A stretch of DNA of 64,000 nt from Patescibacteria group bacterium (GTDB lineage Bacteria > Patescibacteriota > Minisyncoccia > Phycocordibacterales > JBBUBG01), in contig JAZKIQ010000004.1 in the NCBI GenBank assembly GCA_040384765.1, positions 63,434 to 127,433 of the forward strand, given 5' to 3'. Under the pieces are notes generated by a model. The model was not told the DNA's origin. It did not search any database and was given only the letters and a program-made list of their open reading frames with translations. Below, piece by piece: positions 3,479-62,260 of the stretch (positions are counted from its first letter, which is position 1; the number at the start of each line of letters is the position of its first letter). Made by a program: the position numbers and the translations under genes.

Positions 3479-3520
3479 AAGAGAATCCCCATTATTCTTG
3501 CGAATAATGGGGATTCTCTT
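3479..3520 (-). terminator. Rho-independent terminator downstream of the HU gene; abuts the start of the giant membrane-protein gene
   Basis: Perfect hairpin agagaatccccattattc-ttgc-gaataatggggattctct; U-rich on the minus-strand side. Confidence 0.6.
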
Positions 3521-3875: not shown

Positions 3876-4053
3876 GTGTTCGCAATCTCGCGTCCTGTCA
3901 AAACGCCGGAGTTCCGAGCGAAAAACGAGATGGAGTTCGAGCCGTATAGTATACGGCTCGGGCGAAGCGCAGTTTTGCAGCCGGAACTCCGGCGTTTTGG
4001 CGGACGAGCGATACTTTCAGCCCATCCCTTCGCGGCGAGATTGTGAACACTGC
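3876..4053. other. Nested perfect inverted repeats (candidate structured RNA or element scar)
   Basis: Outer 18-bp arms 3876-3893/4036-4053 (one G-U). Inner 18-bp arms caaaacgccggagttccg 3899-3916 and cggaactccggcgttttg 3981-3998. Internal hairpin gagccgtatagtatacggctc. Confidence 0.35.
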
Positions 4054-7702: not shown

Positions 7703-7801
7703 GGAAGAAATGACTTAATGACTAATGACGAATGACCAATGAATGCGGGTGTCCGATTTTCTAGACATTAGACATTAGGCATTAGTCATTTGCAAATTGA
7801 T
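7703..7801 (-). promoter_or_regulatory. Palindromic array of heptad direct repeats (4x GTCATTn facing 4x nAATGAC) in the tig-clpP intergenic region, touching the clpP start codon
   Basis: Coding strand: ATGACTAATGCCTAATGTCTAATGTCTA...cATTGGTCATTCGTCATTAGTCATTAAGTCATTTcttccATG. Confidence 0.5.
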
Positions 7802-12123: not shown

Positions 12124-12238
12124 GCCTCTTCTGGATGTGTCTTTTTGGAACACGGATATTTTTCTGGTGAAAAATTCCTCGAGCTCGCTTCGGCCAAGCT
12201 CGCTAGTTTCCAAAAAGACACATCCAGAAGAGGTCTTG
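12121..12238. repeat. Family-1 element copy 1: conserved ~75-nt core clamped by a locus-specific 17-21 bp inverted repeat
   Basis: Core TTTTTGGAACACGGATATTTTTCTGGTGAAAAATTCCTCGAGCTCGCTTCGGCCAAGCTCGCTAGTTTCCAAAAA. Arms cctcttctggatgtgtc / gacacatccagaagagg. Confidence 0.8.
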
Positions 12239-16915: not shown

Positions 16916-17009
16916 CTGTTCATGAAGCATAAAACATGAATCACGAATCATTCTTCAAAAAATCCCCTCAGCATGTTCGGCATGTTTTATGTTTTATGTT
17001 TCATGTTCT
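16916..17009 (+). promoter_or_regulatory. AT-rich palindromic array of CATGTT/AACATG hexamer repeats between pilB and pilC, ending at the pilC ATG
   Basis: ttcatgaagcataaaacatgaatcacgaatcattc ... catgttcggcatgttttatgttttatgtttcatgttctATG. Confidence 0.45.
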
Positions 17010-20887: not shown

Positions 20888-20981
20888 AAACCTGCAAAAG
20901 CTATTTGCCGTCGCTGTCTGGCGCTGCTGCGCCAGCGCTGACTCTCGCGCCGTCGCGCTGCTAGACACGGCAAATAGCTTT
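20888..20981. repeat. 24-bp perfect inverted repeat enclosing a 46-nt GC-rich loop (large terminator-like hairpin after the pilus cluster)
   Basis: aaacctgcaaaagctatttgccgt ... acggcaaatagcttttgcaggttt followed by ttcgc. Confidence 0.6.
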
Positions 20982-21060
20982 TGCAGGTTTTCGCTGGGGC
21001 GGCAGAGAATACGCACCCTTGATTCTCTCGGCGGGCTTACGCAACCTGTGATAAAGTGGA

Positions 21061-25516: not shown

Positions 25517-25978
25517 ATGACCCCAAAAATAATCGCGTATACCGACGGGGGCTCGAGAAATAACCCGGGCGCGGCAGGGTCTGGGGCCTATATTATCGAT
25601 GCGGAAGGGAACGTCCTCAAAAAGGCGTGGAGGGCGCTTGGTGTCGCGACCAACAATGTTGCGGAGTATACGGCAGTGATCCTTGCTCTCGAAGAGATAA
25701 AAAAGTTGGTGCCGGAAGCGGCGCGAAAAGATGCGGAGATCGAGATCCGGATGGATTCAGAGCTTGTATGTAGACAGATGATGGGGAGATACAAAATAAA
25801 AGCACCAGGATTGAAGCCGCTGTATGCAGATGTGCGAAATCTGATTATCGACTTTCCAAAAACGAAATTTGTTCATGTGCGGCGCGAGCTAAACAAAGAT
25901 GCGGATGCTCTTTCGAATGTGGCGATGGATGAAAGTGAGAAGATGCTAGCGAGCGCGAAAGAAGGGTTGTTCAAATAA
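25517..25978 (+). CDS. rnhA: Ribonuclease HI (start MTPKIIAYTDGG)
   Basis: YTDGGSRNNPG...EYTAVILALE...HVRRELNKDADALSN. Confidence 0.88.
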   Translation: MTPKIIAYTDGGSRNNPGAAGSGAYIIDAEGNVLKKAWRALGVATNNVAEYTAVILALEEIKKLVPEAARKDAEIEIRMDSELVCRQMMGRYKIKAPGLKPLYADVRNLIIDFPKTKFVHVRRELNKDADALSNVAMDESEKMLASAKEGLFK

Positions 25979-26088
25979 ATAAAACAGTATCTTTTTTGGA
26001 ACACGGATATTTTTCTGGTGAAAAATTCCTCGAGCTCGCTTCGATCAAGCTCGCTAGTTTCCAAAAAAGATACTGTTTTATTTATTTG
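25972..26088. repeat. Family-1 element copy 2; the left arm contains the rnhA stop codon
   Basis: 20-bp perfect arms caaataaataaaacagtatc / gatactgttttatttatttg around the conserved core (nearly identical to copy 1). Confidence 0.8.
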
Positions 26089-26603: not shown

Positions 26604-26642
26604 AGTATGTTTTAAAAGCATCCGCTGCTTTTAAAACATACT
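26604..26642. promoter_or_regulatory. 17-bp perfect palindrome (5-nt spacer) in the divergent region between the hydrolase-like gene and comEC; candidate operator
   Basis: agtatgttttaaaagca-tccgc-tgcttttaaaacatact. Confidence 0.5.
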
Positions 26643-29865: not shown

Positions 29866-29900
29866 AAAAAGAAACACCGCCACTTTGTGGCGGTGTTTCT
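29866..29900. terminator. Bidirectional terminator hairpin
   Basis: aaagaaacaccgccac-tttg-tggcggtgtttcttt. Confidence 0.7.
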
Positions 29901-29912
29901 TTAGATTTTCTT

Positions 29913-30010
29913 ATTGCCTAGTGAAGTGAGAGTCGCGAAAGTGTACTCACTTTCATGACCGAACGAATGACGGCAAAAAAGTGAGCACACTTTATGCTGC
30001 GACTGGCTCT
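29913..30010 (+). repeat. Family-2 element copy A (5' module); its 3' part encodes the last codons and stop of rpmB on the opposite strand
   Basis: ATTGCCTAGTGAAGTGAGAGTCGCGAAAGTGTACTCACTTTCATGACCGAACGAATGACGGCAAAAAAGTGAG. Confidence 0.75.
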
Positions 30011-30245: not shown

Positions 30246-30875
30246 TTGTATGCTACTATACCTCTACTCTCCATGCAAGGATTTTCACTCATTTTTGACC
30301 TCCTGATCGTCCTCGTTTCCGTCATTGTGCACGAAGTTTCGCACGGGTATATGGCGGCGTATCTCGGCGACCCTACAGCGAAGCTTTCGGGTCGCCTGAC
30401 CCTCAATCCGCTTTCGCACCTTGATCCGTTTGGCTCGATTTTGTTGCCAGGGATGCTCTATTTTATAGGTGCACCGATGATCGGATATGCAAAGCCGGTA
30501 CCGTACAATCCATATAACCTTCGCGGTGGGAAATGGGGACCTGCGCTTGTTGCAATGGCGGGACCCGGGACCAATTTTCTTATCGCTCTTATTTTTGGTC
30601 TTTTGCTCAGGTTTGCTCCGGTTGATCTGGCAACTGTCTCGGTGCTTTCGTCGATCGTACTTATCAATATTGTACTTGGTGTTTTCAACTCGATACCTGT
30701 GGCTCCGCTTGATGGATCGAAGGTGCTTTTTGCCCTTCTTCCATATCGCTACTATTGGGTAGAGGAGTGGGCCGAGCGATACAGTCTTGTGCTCGTGCTA
30801 CTTTTTATCATTCTTGGTTGGCCGCTCGTGGAGTGGATTGTGCCGCTTGTCTTCCGGTTGATTGTCGGTGTTTGA
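30246..30875 (+). CDS. Membrane zinc metalloprotease (site-2 protease/M50-like)
   Basis: HEVSHGY (HExxH) in a TM segment; LDGS motif. Confidence 0.8.
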   Translation: MYATIPLLSMQGFSLIFDLLIVLVSVIVHEVSHGYMAAYLGDPTAKLSGRLTLNPLSHLDPFGSILLPGMLYFIGAPMIGYAKPVPYNPYNLRGGKWGPALVAMAGPGTNFLIALIFGLLLRFAPVDLATVSVLSSIVLINIVLGVFNSIPVAPLDGSKVLFALLPYRYYWVEEWAERYSLVLVLLFIILGWPLVEWIVPLVFRLIVGV

Positions 30876-31001
30876 AGCACGTTTTAAAACCGCAGATTCG
30901 CGAAGCCGAGGGAGAAAAATGCGAGGTGTACACAAGGTACAGTGAGTGTTTTTCGACCGATGGCGACAAAGAAGGTGGGGTTTTAAAACGTGCTTCAGGA
31001 G
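30874..31001. repeat. 18-bp perfect inverted repeat enclosing a 92-nt loop, overlapping the protease stop codon
   Basis: gaagcacgttttaaaacc ... ggttttaaaacgtgcttc. Confidence 0.6.
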
Positions 31002-31869: not shown

Positions 31870-31898
31870 TTGACAACCACCCTCCCTTTGCTTACTAT
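31870..31898 (+). promoter_or_regulatory. Consensus sigma70 promoter TTGACA-17-TACTAT for rpsL-rpsG-fusA
   Basis: ttgaca(31870-31875), spacer, tactat(31893-31898). Confidence 0.65.
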
Positions 31899-31913: not shown

Positions 31914-32333
31914 ATGTCGACCATCAATCAGCTCATACGCAAGCCCCGCAAGCCTTCTCGCCGGCTCTCGCGCACCGTTGCGCTCGCGCGCGGCTTTAAC
32001 ACGCTTAAGAACCGCCCGGTGTTTTATCCAGCGCCTTTTAAGCGAGGTGTATGCACAAAGGTATCGACTACAACTCCGAAAAAGCCTAACTCAGCTCTCC
32101 GAAAGATCGCCCGCGTTCGCCTTACGAACGGCATGGAGGTTACCGCATATATTCCTGGTATTGGCCACAATCTTCAGGAGCACTCAGTGGTGATCATCCG
32201 CGGCGGCAAGGTAAAGGACCTTCCTGGTGTTCGATATCATATCGTTCGCGGTATGCTCGATGCATCTGGCGTAGACAAGCGTAATCAGTCGCGCTCGAAG
32301 TATGGTGCAAAGCGACCAAAGGCTAAGAAGTAA
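31914..32333 (+). CDS. rpsL: Ribosomal protein S12
   Basis: [31 protein letters not shown]... Confidence 0.96.
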
Positions 32334-32347
32334 TTTTGTAATATCTC

Positions 32348-32818
32348 ATGCGACGCAAAGTAAAAGGACGAAATATAGTAAAACCGGATTTCAAATACAA
32401 TTCGGTGAAGATTGCTCAGTTCATCAACTACACCATGGAGGATGGCAAGAAGGAGGTTGCCCGAAAGGTGGTGTACGGTATGCTCGAGGATCTGAAAAGG
32501 GATATGAAGGTTGAGAACCCGGTAGAGCTTTTTGAGATTGCGATCAAGAACGTGGCGCCTTCAACCGAGGTGCGCAGCCGCCGCATTGGTGGTGCTACAT
32601 ACCAGGTACCTCGCGAGGTTCGTCCGGAGCGTCGACAGGCACTTGCGTATCGCTGGATTCTTGATGCAGCACGCAGCAAGAAAGGTTCGCCAATCCAGAA
32701 GCGTCTTGCGGATGAGATTATCGCTGCATCAAAGAACGAAGGGGAAGCGGTGCGCAAGAGAGAGAACACTCAGAAGATGGCTGACGCGAACCGGGCATTT
32801 GCACATTTTGCTTGGTAA
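32348..32818 (+). CDS. rpsG: Ribosomal protein S7
   Basis: Canonical S7 sequence. Confidence 0.96.
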   Translation: MRRKVKGRNIVKPDFKYNSVKIAQFINYTMEDGKKEVARKVVYGMLEDLKRDMKVENPVELFEIAIKNVAPSTEVRSRRIGGATYQVPREVRPERRQALAYRWILDAARSKKGSPIQKRLADEIIAASKNEGEAVRKRENTQKMADANRAFAHFAW

Positions 32819-32820
32819 GT

Positions 32821-32931
32821 GGCGCTCGCCACAGTTCCTTTTTGGAACACGGATAATTTTTTGCTAAAAATTTCCTCGAGCTCGCGCCGGTCGCGCTCCC
32901 TAGTTTCCAAAAAGGAACTGTGGCGAGCGCC
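32821..32931. repeat. Family-1 element copy 3, inside the str operon between rpsG and fusA
   Basis: 18-bp perfect arms ggcgctcgccacagttcc / ggaactgtggcgagcgcc; core variant ...GGATAATTTTTTGCTAAAAATTTCC... Confidence 0.8.
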
Positions 32932-32989
32932 CTCGCTTGTTTCGAGTGCGCGATTGCCGGATTTTAAATAAAAATAAATTACACAAGGA

Positions 32990-35125
32990 ATGGAACGTGA
33001 CTATCCTCTAGAGAAAGTACGCAACTTCGGTATCATCGCTCATATCGACGCGGGAAAGACGACAACGTCCGAGCGTATTTTGTACTACACCGGAGAGACT
33101 CATAAGATCGGTGAGGTGCATGAAGGAGAGACAGTTACGGACTGGATGGAGCAGGAGCGCGAGCGTGGTATCACTATTACTGCCGCCGCTATCACCTGTT
33201 TTTGGAACCCGACCTACGTGGCAAAAGGGGATGTTTCAAAGAAACATCGTTTCAATATTATCGACACTCCGGGGCATATCGACTTTACCGTAGAGGTAAA
33301 GCGATCGCTCCGCGTGCTCGACGGTGCTGTCGTGGTATTTGACGGAGTAGCCGGTGTAGAGCCTCAGTCAGAGACCAACTGGCGCTATGCCGACGATGCT
33401 ATGACCCCTCGCATCTGTTTCATCAACAAGCTCGACCGTATGGGTGCCTCATTTGAGCGCTCGTTCGCTTCGATCCTCGATCGTCTCAACAAAAACGCTG
33501 TTCGCGTGCAGATCCCTATGGGTCTCGAAGAGCATTTTGGCGGCGTGATCGACCTTCTCAAAATGAAGGCATATTACTTCGAAGGGGAGATGGGCAACAC
33601 GATTCGTGAGGAAGAGGTGCCAGCAGAATATATGGAGGAGGCAAAGAAGTATCGTGCAGAGCTCGTCGAAAAAATCGCCGCAGAAGATGATGCCCTTATG
33701 GCTAAGTTCCTCGATGGCGCAGAGCTCTCTCTCCCAGAGCTCAAGGCGGGTCTTCGCAAGGCAACGCTTGCGGTGAAGCTTATCCCTGTTTTTACCGGCT
33801 CCGCGCTCAAGAACAAGGGTGTACAGCTCGTACTCGATGGCGTGGTGGACTACCTTCCTTCGCCTGTAGATATGCCGCCAGTACACGGTATTGATCCAGC
33901 AACGGGTGCAGATATTGCCCGAAGCGCTTCTGATACAGAGCCATTTTCTGCTCTCGCTTTCAAGCTTCAGGTGGACCCCTTTGTGGGACAGCTCACGTTC
34001 TTCCGTGTCTACTCAGGTACGCTCGAAGCAGGAAGCTATATTTACAACGCAACAACAGGTGAAAAGGAGCGCCTTGGCCGCATCGTGCGCCTTCAGGCAG
34101 ATAAGCGGGAAGAGGTAAAGAAAGTGTTCGCGGGAGAGATCGCCGCCGCGGTAGGCCTCAAGAGCGCGCGCACTTCGCACACTTTTTGTGACGAATCGAA
34201 ACCGATCATCCTTGATCCGATCAAGTTCGTTGATCCCGTAGTATCGCTCAGGATCGAGCCAAAGACGAAGGCTGACCAGGAGAAGATGGGTATGGCGCTC
34301 AAGAAGCTTGCTGATGAAGATCCTACCTTCCAGATCACCTCAAACGCGGAAACCGCTGAGACGCTTGTTTCAGGCATGGGAGAGCTTCATCTTGAGATCA
34401 TGATCGATCGCATGAAGCGCGAGTTTGGCGTGGAGGCAACAGTGGGCAAGCCACAGGTGGCATATCGTGAGACTATTCTCGGTACCGCTGAAGCAGAGTG
34501 CAAATATGTAAAGCAGTCTGGTGGAAAAGGTCAGTATGCTCATGTGAAGATCCGCGTAAAGCCACTCGACCTTTCCGAAGAGCCTTCAAAGCAGACGAAG
34601 CGTCGAGATCATTTCGAATTTACAAACTCAATCAAAGGTGGACTCATTCCGCAGGAGTTTATCCCAGCAGTGGAGAAGGGTCTTATCGAAGGCCTTTCGC
34701 GTGGTGTTGTTGCAGGATTTGCGCTCGTGGACGTGTCGGTGGAGCTTTTCCATGGTTCGTACCACGATGTAGACTCTTCTGAAATCGCCTTCAAGATCGC
34801 AGGATCGATGGCCGTGCAAGATGCGGTAAAGCAGGCTCGTCCGGTGATCCTTGAGCCGATCATGCGCGTAGAGGTGGTGATGCCAGAACGATTTATGGGT
34901 GATGTTACCGGCTCGCTCAACTCAAAGCGTGGTCAGATCGAAGCGATGGAAGACCGTGGTCTCAACAAGGTGATCCGCGCCAAGGTGCCTCTTTCAGAGA
35001 TGTTTGGGTACGTAACGAACCTTCGCTCTATGACCGAAGGCCGCGGCAGCTCCTCGATGGAGTTCGCAGAGTATGCAGTGGTACCGCCAAACGTAGCCGC
35101 AACGATTGCCGCAAAGGTAAAGTAA
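32990..35125 (+). CDS. fusA: Elongation factor G
   Basis: [12 protein letters not shown]...; 711 aa. Confidence 0.97.
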
Positions 35126-35142
35126 ACAGAATTTTAATCAGA

Positions 35143-35170
35143 AAAGCCCCGGCAGATGCCGGGGCTTTTC
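35143..35170 (+). terminator. Rho-independent terminator after fusA
   Basis: aaaagccccggcagatgccggggcttttc. Confidence 0.7.
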
Positions 35171-35251
35171 TGATGTGGACACTGAAGGCCTATTCTAAAA
35201 GAAAATCCGCGGCGGCCCGAAGGGTCGCCGCGGATTGCGTGGAGAAGTCGA

Positions 35252-44147: not shown

Positions 44148-44162
44148 CCGTTAGGTGAGAAA

Positions 44163-44195
44163 AACAAAAGCCGCCCCTAGGGGCGGCTTTTGTTT
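44163..44195. terminator. Bidirectional terminator
   Basis: aaaagccgcccctaggggcggcttttgtttt. Confidence 0.7.
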
Positions 44196-44199
44196 TGCA

Positions 44200-44691: not shown

Positions 44692-44765
44692 TACATCACC
44701 CCTTTTAGGTGTTCCGTATCTTTATATAATACCTTATTTTTCCTGATCTGTCTAGATGGCGTCTA

Positions 44766-44930
44766 TTGCCTAGTGAAGTGAGCGTCGCGAAAATGTACTC
44801 ACTTTCATGACCGAACGAACGACGGCAAAAAAGGTGAGTACCCCGTCAGCTTTGCTGCGGACCCCAGTGTCAGTACTCTCACGCTGGGGTCCGAGGGCTT
44901 GCCCCGGGGTTAATACCCTTTATTTTTGCC
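44766..44930 (+). repeat. Family-2 element copy B (full length); its 3' module encodes the last ~14 codons and stop of the pterin dehydratase gene on the opposite strand
   Basis: 5' module ATTGCCTAGTGAAGTGAGCGTCGCGAAAATGTACTCACTTTCATGACCGAACGAACGACGGCAAAAAAGGTGAG; 3' module TACCCCG-hairpin-hairpin-GGGCTTGCCCCGGGGTTAATACCCTTTATT. Confidence 0.8.
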
Positions 44931-51244: not shown

Positions 51245-51508
51245 TACCTTGTTCATTTCATCTTTCTCCTCTATACTCATCCCGTGAGTGCAGCTCGAAA
51301 TAATTCTTATTACGAGCAACACCTTCATGAAGAATTGTGCACAAGGGTCCTTGGTTTACCTCGGACCTTTCGTGTTTACAGGCACTTCATGTATACTCTC
51401 TGGCGTGGGTCGTCTTTTGGCATAGGTCACGGCGACACTCACATTCACAATTTTTTATGGAGGCTTGTCCCGTGGCCTTTGCCGCGAGATGACCGACAGA
51501 AGAAAAAG

Positions 51509-51537
51509 AAAAAATCCGCGCAAGCGGATTTTTTCTT
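51509..51537. terminator. Bidirectional terminator
   Basis: aaaaaatccgcgcaagcggattttttc. Confidence 0.6.
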
Positions 51538-51799
51538 TTGTATTTCCGGTAAGAATGAGCATTAAAAAATTTCGAGCATCTGCAGTCAGTTTTTAAAAGA
51601 AAGGAGATATGATTTCCGAAAATAGTGGTCGCACTACACGAAGTGAGTGCGGGAACCGCTTTTATTTTCGAGAAATCAGAGCGACAATTCTTTTTTAAAT
51701 GACGAAGCCGCGAGAAATTTTTTAATGCGAATGAAGTTTATCCACACTTTTCTGTAAAAAAATATTGTATGCATCGTCATCATGGTCGATAATGAATGC

Positions 51800-51916: not shown

Positions 51917-51930
51917 TTTGTTTTCTCTCA

Positions 51931-51963
51931 AAAAACTTTCCGGACATCCGGAAAGTTTTTTGT
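51931..51963 (+). terminator. Rho-independent terminator
   Basis: aaaaactttccggacatccggaaagttttttg. Confidence 0.65.
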
Positions 51964-58826: not shown

Positions 58827-58837
58827 CCAGCAGCGAA

Positions 58838-58876
58838 ACTAAAACGGGCCGCTTGGTGCGGCCCGTTTTAGTTTCG
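58838..58876. terminator. Bidirectional terminator
   Basis: aaactaaaacgggccgcttggtgcggcccgttttagttt. Confidence 0.7.
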
Positions 58877-58942
58877 CATGGTGAGCTATCAGGAGACATT
58901 CGTCTCGACTCTCCTCGAACTCGAATTGAAATTTTCGCGAAT

Positions 58943-60831: not shown

Positions 60832-61041
60832 CGGGACGTGGTGTAACGGTAACATTCACGAGATGGGGTCGAATCTTTTGTCGGGCTATAGTGTAACGGT
60901 AACATTCACGATTCGGGTTCGTGAGACTCTGGGTTCAAATCCCAGTAGCCCGACAAAAGATTTGACGGGAATGCCCCAAGCGCATTCCCCGGATTTTCAG
61001 CAGAAAATGTGAGACTCCGGGTTCAAATCCCGGCGTCCCGA
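60832..61041 (+). tRNA. Split or nested tRNA-Pro(UGG)-like gene: 5' half 60832-60868, 3' half 61007-61041, interrupted by 138 nt that contain the tRNA-Pro(CGG) gene
   Basis: Acceptor CGGGACG pairs perfectly with CGTCCCG; T arm CCGGG-TTCAAAT-CCCGG (compensatory relative to the inner tRNA); anticodon loop GATGGGG. Confidence 0.4.
60882..60953 (+). tRNA. tRNA-Pro (anticodon CGG)
   Basis: Hand-folded: acceptor CGGGCTA/TAGCCCG; D stem GTGT/ACAT; anticodon stem CACGA/TCGTG; loop TTCGGGT; T arm CTGGG-TTCAAAT-CCCAG. Confidence 0.8.
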
Positions 61042-61970: not shown

Positions 61971-62101
61971 AACGTCTTCTCTCACCGATCGACAGTTCGA
62001 AGAAACCCCGACGTGTCCTACGGGGTTTCTTTGCTAAAAGAGAGGTAAACCCTCTCTTTTAGCAAAGAAGTTATGCATAAAAACCGTTTGCAGATTACTT
62101 G

Positions 62102-62260
62102 ATTGCCTAGCGTAGTGAGAGAAATGAAAAGAGTACTTTTTATTTCCGAACGAGCGACGGCAAAAAAGGGCAGATACCCCGCCGCTTTGCGGCGCCCCGT
62201 ACAAACAGTACACTGGTTGTACGGGGCGGGGGCTTGTCCCGGGGTTAATACCCTTTATTC
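62102..62260 (+). repeat. Family-2 element copy C, immediately upstream of the cupredoxin gene
   Basis: GATTGCCTAGCGTAGTGAGAG...CGAACGAGCGACGGCAAAAAAGGGCAGATACCCCG-hairpins-GGGCTTGTCCCGGGGTTAATACCCTTTATT. Confidence 0.75.

Follow-up and report, generated by a model that had tools for sequence, protein, structure and literature searches.

A candidate MITE-like palindromic repeat of Patescibacteria in the spacer between rpsG and fusA

The window analysed here is a stretch of 64,000 nucleotides from a Patescibacteria genome, in which a 111-nt hairpin lies between rpsG and fusA of the str operon. On balance, we favour reading this hairpin as a member of a MITE-like family of small, non-coding palindromic repeats dispersed in Patescibacteria; any effect on the str mRNA would be a by-product. 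Copies of the repeat, called Family-1, occupy divergent, convergent and co-directional spacers of unrelated genes; this placement argues for a dispersed mobile-like repeat rather than a regulator of the str operon. Among the bacterial palindromic MITE-like repeats, Family-1 would stand out for its branched centre, which stays constant while the perfect stems are rebuilt, and for its occurrence in CPR hosts.

The genomes of Patescibacteria are tiny and tightly packed, and very little is known of their mobile DNA and RNA-level regulation. Very stable Family-1 hairpins (about -70 kcal/mol) stand inside essential operons, as here between rpsG and fusA, and also in the promoter or 3' regions of housekeeping genes; lineages therefore probably differ in mRNA processing and stability on their account.

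The hairpin between rpsG and fusA

The str operon of the window has the following features.

31870-31898, + strand: promoter-like site TTGACA-17-TACTAT upstream of rpsL (consensus scan)
31914-32333, + strand: rpsL, encoding S12 (Pfam S12)
32348-32818, + strand: rpsG, encoding S7 (Pfam S7)
32990-35125, + strand: fusA, encoding EF-G (Pfam EF-G), with an AAGGA ribosome-binding site (RBS) at about 32982-32986
35137-35174, + strand: plain terminator-like hairpin with an 18-bp perfect stem, 3' of fusA

The Pfam matches to S7 and EF-G bear out the gene boundaries of the preliminary description (rpsG stop at 32818, fusA start at 32990), and the spacer between the two genes is 171 nt long. An S7 protein 100% identical to the rpsG product is on record from an NCBI 'Patescibacteria group bacterium' MAG. 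In a scan for sigma-70-like consensus, the site at 31870-31898 was the sole good promoter-like site of the rpsL-rpsG-fusA unit. No such promoter was found between rpsG and fusA, either inside or after the element, in line with the earlier remark that none is obvious downstream of the hairpin; a fusA promoter within or 3' of the element was rejected on this negative scan. The three genes are probably one co-transcribed unit.

The hairpin can be divided as follows (P1, the long stem; L numbers are our handles for loci elsewhere).

32821-32931, + strand: complete Family-1 hairpin, 111 nt, in the rpsG-fusA spacer (inverted repeat, fold z, covariance-model match of 107 bits)
32821-32827, + strand: GGCGCTC, left terminal motif, starting 2 nt after the rpsG stop (GGCGCTC, GTCGCTC or ..CTC stands before the stem in L018, L012 and most other copies)
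32828-32838, + strand: GCCACAGTTCC, outer P1, 5' arm (related to AACAGTATC in the copy at 25972 and to GGCATATAG in L018)
32839-32847, + strand: TTTTTGGAA, inner P1, 5' arm, family-conserved (compensatory changes across 17 copies)
32848-32904, + strand: 57-nt conserved core, three-way junction (alignment, RNAalifold, pair counts)
32851-32875, + strand: hairpin A, with GGA, a bulged U, a 7-bp covarying stem and the loop UGCU at 32862-32865 (pair counts)
32884-32896, + strand: hairpin B, with a 4-bp covarying stem and the loop CGGUC, CCGU in most copies (pair counts)
32905-32924, + strand: P1, 3' arm, TTCCAAAAA + GGAACTGTGGC (inverted repeat)
32925-32931, + strand: GAGCGCC, putative inverted copy of the left motif (flank comparison; absent at this place in L018, L012 and L015)
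32932-32937, + strand: CTCGCT, right terminal motif, displaced outward (TCGCT or TCGA in most copies; flank comparison)

The coordinates 32821-32931 first given for the element are exact. Its arms (32821-32847 and 32905-32931) form a 27-nt inverted repeat, 100% complementary, with 57 nt between them. The perfect stem is thus 27 bp long and not 18 bp as first described, the 18 bp being only the part that looks copy-specific. When up to three mismatches were allowed, the 27-mer arm occurred in the window only as these two arms, and 0 of 100 window shuffles gave matches. The predicted RNA fold of 32810-32945 has a free energy of -69.1 kcal/mol, compared with -38.1 ± 3.9 kcal/mol for shuffled sequences (z = -7.9). 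The ORFs that cross the 111-nt element are all spurious (46-50 aa).

Family-1 copies in the window

We searched the window for repeats and with R1, a covariance model built from 17 distinct Family-1 copies. Four copies were found in the 64 kb, all on the + strand: the hairpin described above (the 32k copy) and the following three.

12125-12233, + strand: Family-1 copy with a 26-bp perfect stem, between divergent genes (repeat search, R1); the 12k copy
20888-20990, + strand: distant, GC-rich Family-1 copy with a 24-bp perfect stem (R1, 38.4 bits, E = 6e-8)
25972-26088, + strand: Family-1 copy in the spacer of two convergent genes (RNase H-like / 188 aa), perfect stem of 30 bp (repeat search, R1); the 26k copy

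The assignment of the str hairpin to a 'Family-1' is therefore real: the 12k, 26k and 32k copies are close to each other (R1 scores of 104-107 bits) and one further copy is distant (38 bits). The distant copy retains the loops UGCU and CCGU and the GCUAG junction. The left arm of the 26k copy takes in the stop codon of the upstream gene. The 12k and 26k copies have cores of 97% identity, with a UGGU loop and a GCUU/AAGC stem that are private to this pair, yet unrelated outer stems, which argues for recent copying of the centre.

GC skew is positive over the whole window, and by this measure the strand of the four copies is the lagging-strand template. A replication origin at the 12-kb switch of gene strand was considered as the cause of the shared orientation and rejected, since there is no GC-skew switch.

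Distribution of Family-1

Beyond the window, Family-1 was found at about 20 metagenome or MAG loci that are labelled Patescibacteria and come from independent assemblies. Scans with the core pattern recovered 4 GTDB genomes (labelled Paceibacterota, Saccharibacteria and 'bacterium') and 13 true metagenome contigs. One candidate, L008, was rejected as a chance match within an ORF. By R1, no copy is present in the 49 kb in total of the closest relatives L019, L021 and L022 (81% S7 identity). Searches of IMG/VR and of phage and plasmid collections gave no match, and a phage or plasmid origin was rejected on that ground. A search of the whole window against Rfam 15 at gathering thresholds returned one tRNA only; the spacer, searched at E <= 10, matched just generic miRNA-hairpin models, whose scores of 15-29 bits are below their cut-offs of 70-245. 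These searches led us to reject a known RNA family, riboswitch or ribozyme (hammerhead, twister, pistol, hatchet; Y RNA). Family-1 is previously uncatalogued, and its conserved core, as captured by R1, offers a clean searchable marker for horizontal transfer among CPR lineages.

The neighbours of Family-1 copies are unrelated housekeeping genes: NusA-operon genes and those for TIM, RNase H, S7/EF-G, MacB/FtsX and TyrS, as well as ProRS, ParB, RelA/SpoT, DnaN, GreA, S6 and a NYN-domain protein. Neither a transposase nor a conserved neighbour gene was seen beside the copies, and neither an autonomous parent element nor a transposase for Family-1 was found in the 64 kb of this genome examined. 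Co-directional, convergent and divergent intergenic regions all occur as settings. At most of the non-divergent loci the element is co-oriented with the upstream gene and lies 2-19 nt past its stop codon, an arrangement that counts against the MITE-like reading and hints at a role as RNA. Placements in divergent promoter regions or antisense to a neighbour are found at L001, the L002 group, L013, L016 and the 12k copy.

A guide-like role of the copy-specific arms was also considered and rejected: in the 64 kb searched, their best other matches had 4-5 mismatches in 17-18 positions, which is chance level.

A second Family-1-like sequence, divergent from the others, lies at L005 1265-1343 (- strand; 28 bits, E = 1e-4), with UGCU and CCGU-type loops, an extra hairpin and CACGAATG direct repeats on its flanks.

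A conserved three-way junction inside variable stems

RNAalifold and pair counting agree on a three-way junction as the fold of Family-1. The conserved centre consists of T5GGAA, the 57-nt core and TTCCA5. P1, which includes A-U and C-G pairs beside a bulged C, is conserved in its inner 9-10 bp (T5GGAA) and semi-conserved over the next 5-9 bp or so, and its outermost part is copy-specific. The outer 17-20 bp of the stems differ from copy to copy, yet are perfectly paired.

The pairing was quantified over the aligned copies. Standard pairs fill 94.7% of cells, compared with 77.9% in shuffles, and none of 500 shuffles reached the observed value; slid controls were 35-60% paired. Changes on both sides were seen in 19 of 30 pairs. 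Hairpin A is paired in 99.4% of cells, with both-side changes in 6 of its 10 pairs, and all four pairs of hairpin B show both-side changes. Among 510 pair cells, 480 (94%) are Watson-Crick, 3 are G-T and 14 are A-C. The mismatch bias persists when one orthologue is removed (12 A-C versus 3 G-T, p = 0.035) and would correspond to G-U pairs on the - strand. The strand of a putative RNA would be - by mismatch types and + by genomic context. The scarcity of wobble pairs speaks for a constraint, or a copying process, at the level of DNA.

When MAGs labelled Paceibacterota are compared with those labelled Saccharibacteria, the loops and junctions that stay unpaired are 85-100% conserved. They might serve as the recognition site of a mobilising enzyme, or belong to a functional RNA or protein-binding module; their conservation fits either equally well. 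The latter alternative holds that Family-1 is a functional structured RNA, with a three-way junction that binds a protein or ligand or acts as a new small ribozyme; P1 would merely have to pair, as does P1 of a riboswitch aptamer or the processing stem of a stable RNA, and the element would be released from or recognised in mRNAs, for example by RNase III. We regard this as rather unlikely, although several observations speak for it: the strong covariation in the two internal hairpins; the unpaired positions, which are the most conserved of all; a possible loop-loop covariation (loop L2 GC/loop L3 GU; GG/CC or UC in the 12k and 26k copies; AC/GU in L012); the location just past the stop codon of a co-oriented gene at most loci; and a core that is conserved across MAGs with different CPR labels. 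A tRNA of the window also has a perfect leader-trailer stem, of 10 bp. What weighs against a functional RNA is the near-absence of G-U pairs on the gene-strand transcript (3 of 510 cells, against 14 A-C), together with the fact that template switching can yield both-side changes without RNA selection. Moreover, some copies lie in divergent promoter regions or antisense, as listed above, the distribution is patchy, and whole hairpins are present or absent next to a flanking direct repeat. Near-identical cores sit inside unrelated stems, and no Rfam family or known ribozyme matches.

Growth of the stems

Alignment of the flanks of all copies revealed terminal motifs outside P1 in most of them, ..CTC on the 5' side and TCG.. 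on the 3' side. L018 and the 32k copy share GGCGCTC on the left, and their right motifs read TCGCTTT and CTCGCTT, respectively. Nothing separates P1 from the right motif in L018, L012 or L015. The 32k copy has an extra GAGCGCC at this place; these seven bases are the exact reverse complement of GGCGCTC and bring a perfect stem of 20 bp to 27 bp. The 12k copy likewise carries GAGG between stem and right motif, when compared with L018, L012 and L015. From these flanks we infer that GGCGCTC was copied in inverted form to the right side of the 32k copy. More generally, stems would grow and stay perfect by fold-back or template-switch copying of an arm or a flank. Template switching is a published mechanism for the perfection of inverted repeats (PMC5941160). 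It would also produce 'compensatory' double changes without RNA selection and can therefore mimic RNA covariation.

Plain long perfect hairpins (16-24 bp, loops of 0-7 nt) are common in the clade and were also seen in L019, L021, L022 and L024. Those of the window are at 3479-3520, 26604-26642, 29868-29902, 35137-35174, 44161-44196, 51504-51539, 51929-51962, 58833-58877 and 62027-62069. At orthologous positions their sequences are wholly different, as a comparison of the window with L019 and L021 just past fusA shows, and the upstream stop codon is often inside the hairpin.

The same arm-to-arm templating would explain the long perfect hairpins of the clade. The combination of a constant centre, changing perfect stems and an excess of 16-24-bp hairpins points to unusually active templating between arms, and its mimicry of RNA covariation is a warning for RNA-motif discovery in these genomes.

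Presence and absence of the hairpin at orthologous sites

The clearest comparison of filled and empty sites was obtained upstream of rpsF, which encodes S6. L002, L009 and L017 carry a Family-1 copy there, and further orthologous loci were found through S6 homologues. The hairpin is present in L002, L017, L027 (74% S6 identity; 68 bits) and L005, and absent from L028, L029 and L030, whose leaders are otherwise near-identical to that of L005. Placed antisense to rpsF, the element separates the promoter/leader from the RBS. The direct repeat on its two sides is 10 bp long in L002 (TTTTTGTTTG), 9 nt in L017 and about 6 nt in L027; the empty sites of L028, L029 and L030 have TTTTTGTTTG in a single copy. 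The 10-bp repeat is T-rich and of low complexity, which counts against a target duplication. Taken as sequence patterns, presence or absence of the whole hairpin together with the direct repeat is what a MITE-like insertion would leave behind.

About 60-230 nt upstream of rpsF, a promoter and leader TTGATTTATAGTAATATCA followed by TCTCGCATCGTTGAGACATTGATTTTCAC..GCGTGTTATCCAGAC are conserved in L002, L017, L027, L005, L028 and L030. This conserved region is probably the S6-operon leader.

Two window copies gave a similar picture of presence and absence: the site of the 20888 copy is empty in L019, and L021 and L022 have no element at the 25972 site, where the same two genes overlap by 4 nt. Flanking repeats are less clear elsewhere. 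L012 has TCGCTC on both sides of the element. The flanking matches of window copies are 4-5 nt only (CTCGC at 32826 and 32932; TCTT at the 12k copy) and could be due to chance. An 8-nt direct repeat around the 26k copy, CTAGCGAG, was not counted as a target duplication, since an imperfect palindrome further out (GCTAGCGAGCGC / GCGCTCACTAGC) accounts for most of it. For the 32k copy, a surrounding GCTTG repeat was rejected as well, since it would derive the conserved ...HFAW* end of rpsG from the insert.

The empty rpsF sites also bear on a different view of the stems. A mobile core of about 75 nt might insert into the loops of pre-existing long terminator hairpins, so that the copy-specific stems would be old terminator stems and the rpsG-fusA site before insertion would have been GGCGCTCGCCACAGTTCC-short loop-GGAACTGTGGCGAGCGCC. 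The genome is full of plain perfect hairpins of 16-20 bp, the size range of the copy-specific stem parts; L022 has a plain terminator hairpin at the exact rpsG-fusA position, and about half of the copies have stems with A-rich 5' and U-rich 3' ends. Insertion sequences that target palindromes reportedly exist. However, the empty rpsF sites lack any inverted repeat, and both arms are therefore part of the unit that was gained or lost there. The stems run into the conserved inner stem without an unpaired loop remnant. Nor does the 32k stem resemble a terminator, and the 12k copy occupies a divergent promoter region. In many copies the CTC..TCG motifs lie outside the stems, which places the stems inside the element. 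We therefore consider loop insertion very unlikely.

In the MITE-like reading, which we prefer, Family-1 would spread by DNA transposition with an enzyme acting in trans. After insertion, P1 would be kept Watson-Crick and lengthened by arm-to-arm templating (replication template switching or fold-back copying). In the 32k copy, inverted copying of GGCGCTC as GAGCGCC would yield the 27-bp perfect stem, which comes to within 2 nt of the stop codon of rpsG.

The rpsG-fusA junction in relatives and the str mRNA

A strong hairpin is located directly 3' of rpsG in all five relatives examined, but the hairpins are of different kinds. L022 has a plain terminator only, AAAAAACGAGT - CTC loop - ACTCGTTTTTT followed by a T-rich tail, which is canonical (a stem of 11-12 bp, then U6). 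L019, L021 and L023 have a different core family of about 85 nt, 'family X'.

L019 10475-10593: 'family X' copy, rpsG-fusA spacer
L021 7178-7295: 'family X' copy, rpsG-fusA spacer
L023 1945-2063: 'family X' copy, rpsG-fusA spacer

The three 'family X' cores align with each other (CG.ACT.CTT.GTT... GTAC..GTACAGCT ... GCCTCG.ATT.CAT), and each is enclosed in a perfect stem of 15-17 bp that differs between the relatives and begins 0-4 nt past the rpsG stop. The Family-1 core was seen at this junction only in this genome among five relatives, an outcome that the preliminary description had named as speaking against its reading. Since the hairpins differ in sequence and tip, what is conserved is 'a strong hairpin right after rpsG', and a hairpin at this junction may matter.

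The preliminary description had suggested that the structure could act as a partial attenuator, a processing site or a stabiliser. No T-run or U-tract follows the hairpin at 32821-32931 (the tail is CCUCGCUUGUUUCG), so it is not a canonical intrinsic terminator or attenuator. With CCTCGCTTGTTTCG as its tail, the long hairpin was not called by the terminator scan. The fusA RBS is unpaired in the predicted fold, and sequestration of the RBS by the hairpin was rejected on this basis. The lack of a U-tract and of a downstream promoter, together with the free RBS, makes attenuation by intrinsic termination unlikely. A partial attenuator or terminator that is specific to the operon and tunes expression of rpsLG relative to fusA would fit the strong hairpins of the relatives, the canonical terminator of L022 and the absence of a promoter-like site before fusA. 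Against it stand the missing U-tract, the occurrence of the element as a dispersed repeat in unrelated contexts, and the variation of the junction core among relatives (Family 1, 'family X' or none). We judge a dedicated attenuator quite unlikely.

If Family-1 is instead a MITE-like repeat, the hairpin would be transcribed inside the rpsL-rpsG-fusA mRNA as a very stable structure that leaves the fusA RBS free. A perfect 27-bp RNA duplex is a plausible substrate for RNase III and a plausible barrier to 3'-exonucleases, and differential stability or processing of the rpsLG and fusA segments would thus, by analogy with Correia elements, be the most likely consequence. The hairpin would then serve as a double-stranded RNA processing site or exonuclease barrier that uncouples the stabilities of the rpsLG and fusA parts. 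This would be a by-product of a selfish insertion at a place where a strong hairpin is tolerated and perhaps needed.

Comparison with known systems

Family-1 shares several traits with MITEs. At 111 nt it is below 300 bp, it is non-coding, and its copies are many and scattered, with four in the 64 kb and others at about 20 further loci; it is also present or absent at orthologous sites (the rpsF leader, 20888 and 25972). Correia elements (CREE/NEMIS) of Neisseria, ERIC/IRU, RUP and BOX are likewise dispersed intergenic palindromes of about 100-150 nt that are often co-transcribed as long hairpins. The Correia hairpins of Neisseria are RNase III substrates that alter mRNA stability. Presence or absence at orthologous sites is common to Correia-type MITEs and Family-1, and so may be a flanking direct repeat. 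The two differ in that the outer stem of Family-1 is copy-specific yet perfectly Watson-Crick, in the lack of a known parent IS and in the CPR hosts. Classical MITEs have conserved, transposase-bound terminal inverted repeats, whereas Family-1 has a conserved branched centre and loops, and its outermost stem bases are the least conserved part, which counts against a classical MITE. In addition, classical MITEs have a fixed target duplication (TA in Correia elements), as opposed to the 10-bp direct repeat at the rpsF site.

REP/REPIN elements (RAYT, Y1 HUH) and IS200/IS605-derived elements are, like Family-1, hairpin-forming, structure-dependent repeats. The bulged base in their conserved hairpin has a counterpart in the bulged U of hairpin A, and the position of the four window copies on one strand, the lagging-strand template by GC skew, is a further likeness. 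However, REPs are imperfect palindromes with conserved GC-rich stems of 20-40 nt, a conserved 5' GTAG head and a variable loop. The conservation pattern of Family-1 is the opposite: the 57-nt centre is conserved, the stems vary and there is no GTAG head. Elements of the IS200/IS605 type have subterminal hairpins, no terminal inverted repeats and no target duplication, while Family-1 has long inverted repeats and, at the rpsF site, the 10-bp direct repeat. No RAYT or TnpA gene was found in the DNA examined.

Intrinsic terminators and attenuators share with the 32k hairpin a stable structure right after a stop codon, and L022 has a true one at the junction. They end in a U-tract, which the 32k hairpin lacks, and its 57-nt branched tip and 27-bp stem are far beyond terminator norms.

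Quasipalindrome correction accounts for perfect arms, for both-side changes in one step and for short inverted duplications of a flank, such as GGCGCTC giving GAGCGCC (Ripley; Lovett; PMC5941160). It is documented for short inverted repeats in E. coli, phage T4 and yeast (Ripley; Lovett; PMC5941160); for Patescibacteria, it is sequence patterns that suggest template switching and an outward extension of stems to 24-30 bp.

A bolder reading sees in Family-1 a new class of CPR hairpin element. Such a 'self-sheathing mobile hairpin' would be recognised by its branched centre rather than its ends, and its stem would be rebuilt at each site by fold-back duplication of the flanks; and/or the three-way junction would be a new functional RNA (a protein-binding module or small ribozyme) that is horizontally spread among Patescibacteria and excised from mRNAs via the long duplex. 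We hold this to be possible, if doubtful.

Other repeats of the window

Two further perfect hairpins with large loops, at 30873-30997 (19 bp, 87 nt) and 3899-3999 (18 bp, 65 nt), have cores unrelated to Family 1. The former starts with the stop codon of an M50 peptidase gene, about 0.9 kb upstream of rpsL; alignment gives no support for homology between this element and 'family X'.

Two pairs of direct repeats, also unrelated to Family 1, are found at 29912-29981 / 44764-44833 (70 nt, 96% identity) and 44803-44924 / 62138-62259 (122 nt, 73% identity). Imperfect inverted repeats made up of short AATGAC / CATGAA-like heptamer repeats are located at 7717-7790 and 16921-17005.

The tRNA-Pro(UGG) gene at 60832-61041 carries an insert of about 138 nt (60872-61009) within the 3' strand of its anticodon stem, and removal of the insert in silico restores a valid tRNA-Pro(tgg) by ARAGORN. 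The insert contains a complete tRNA-Pro(CGG) at 60882-60954, whose acceptor stem continues into 10 bp of perfect leader-trailer pairing. Two small hairpins come next, and one of them (ATTTTC AGCA GAAAAT) matches Family-1 hairpin A (TTTTC TGCT GAAAA) in reverse complement.
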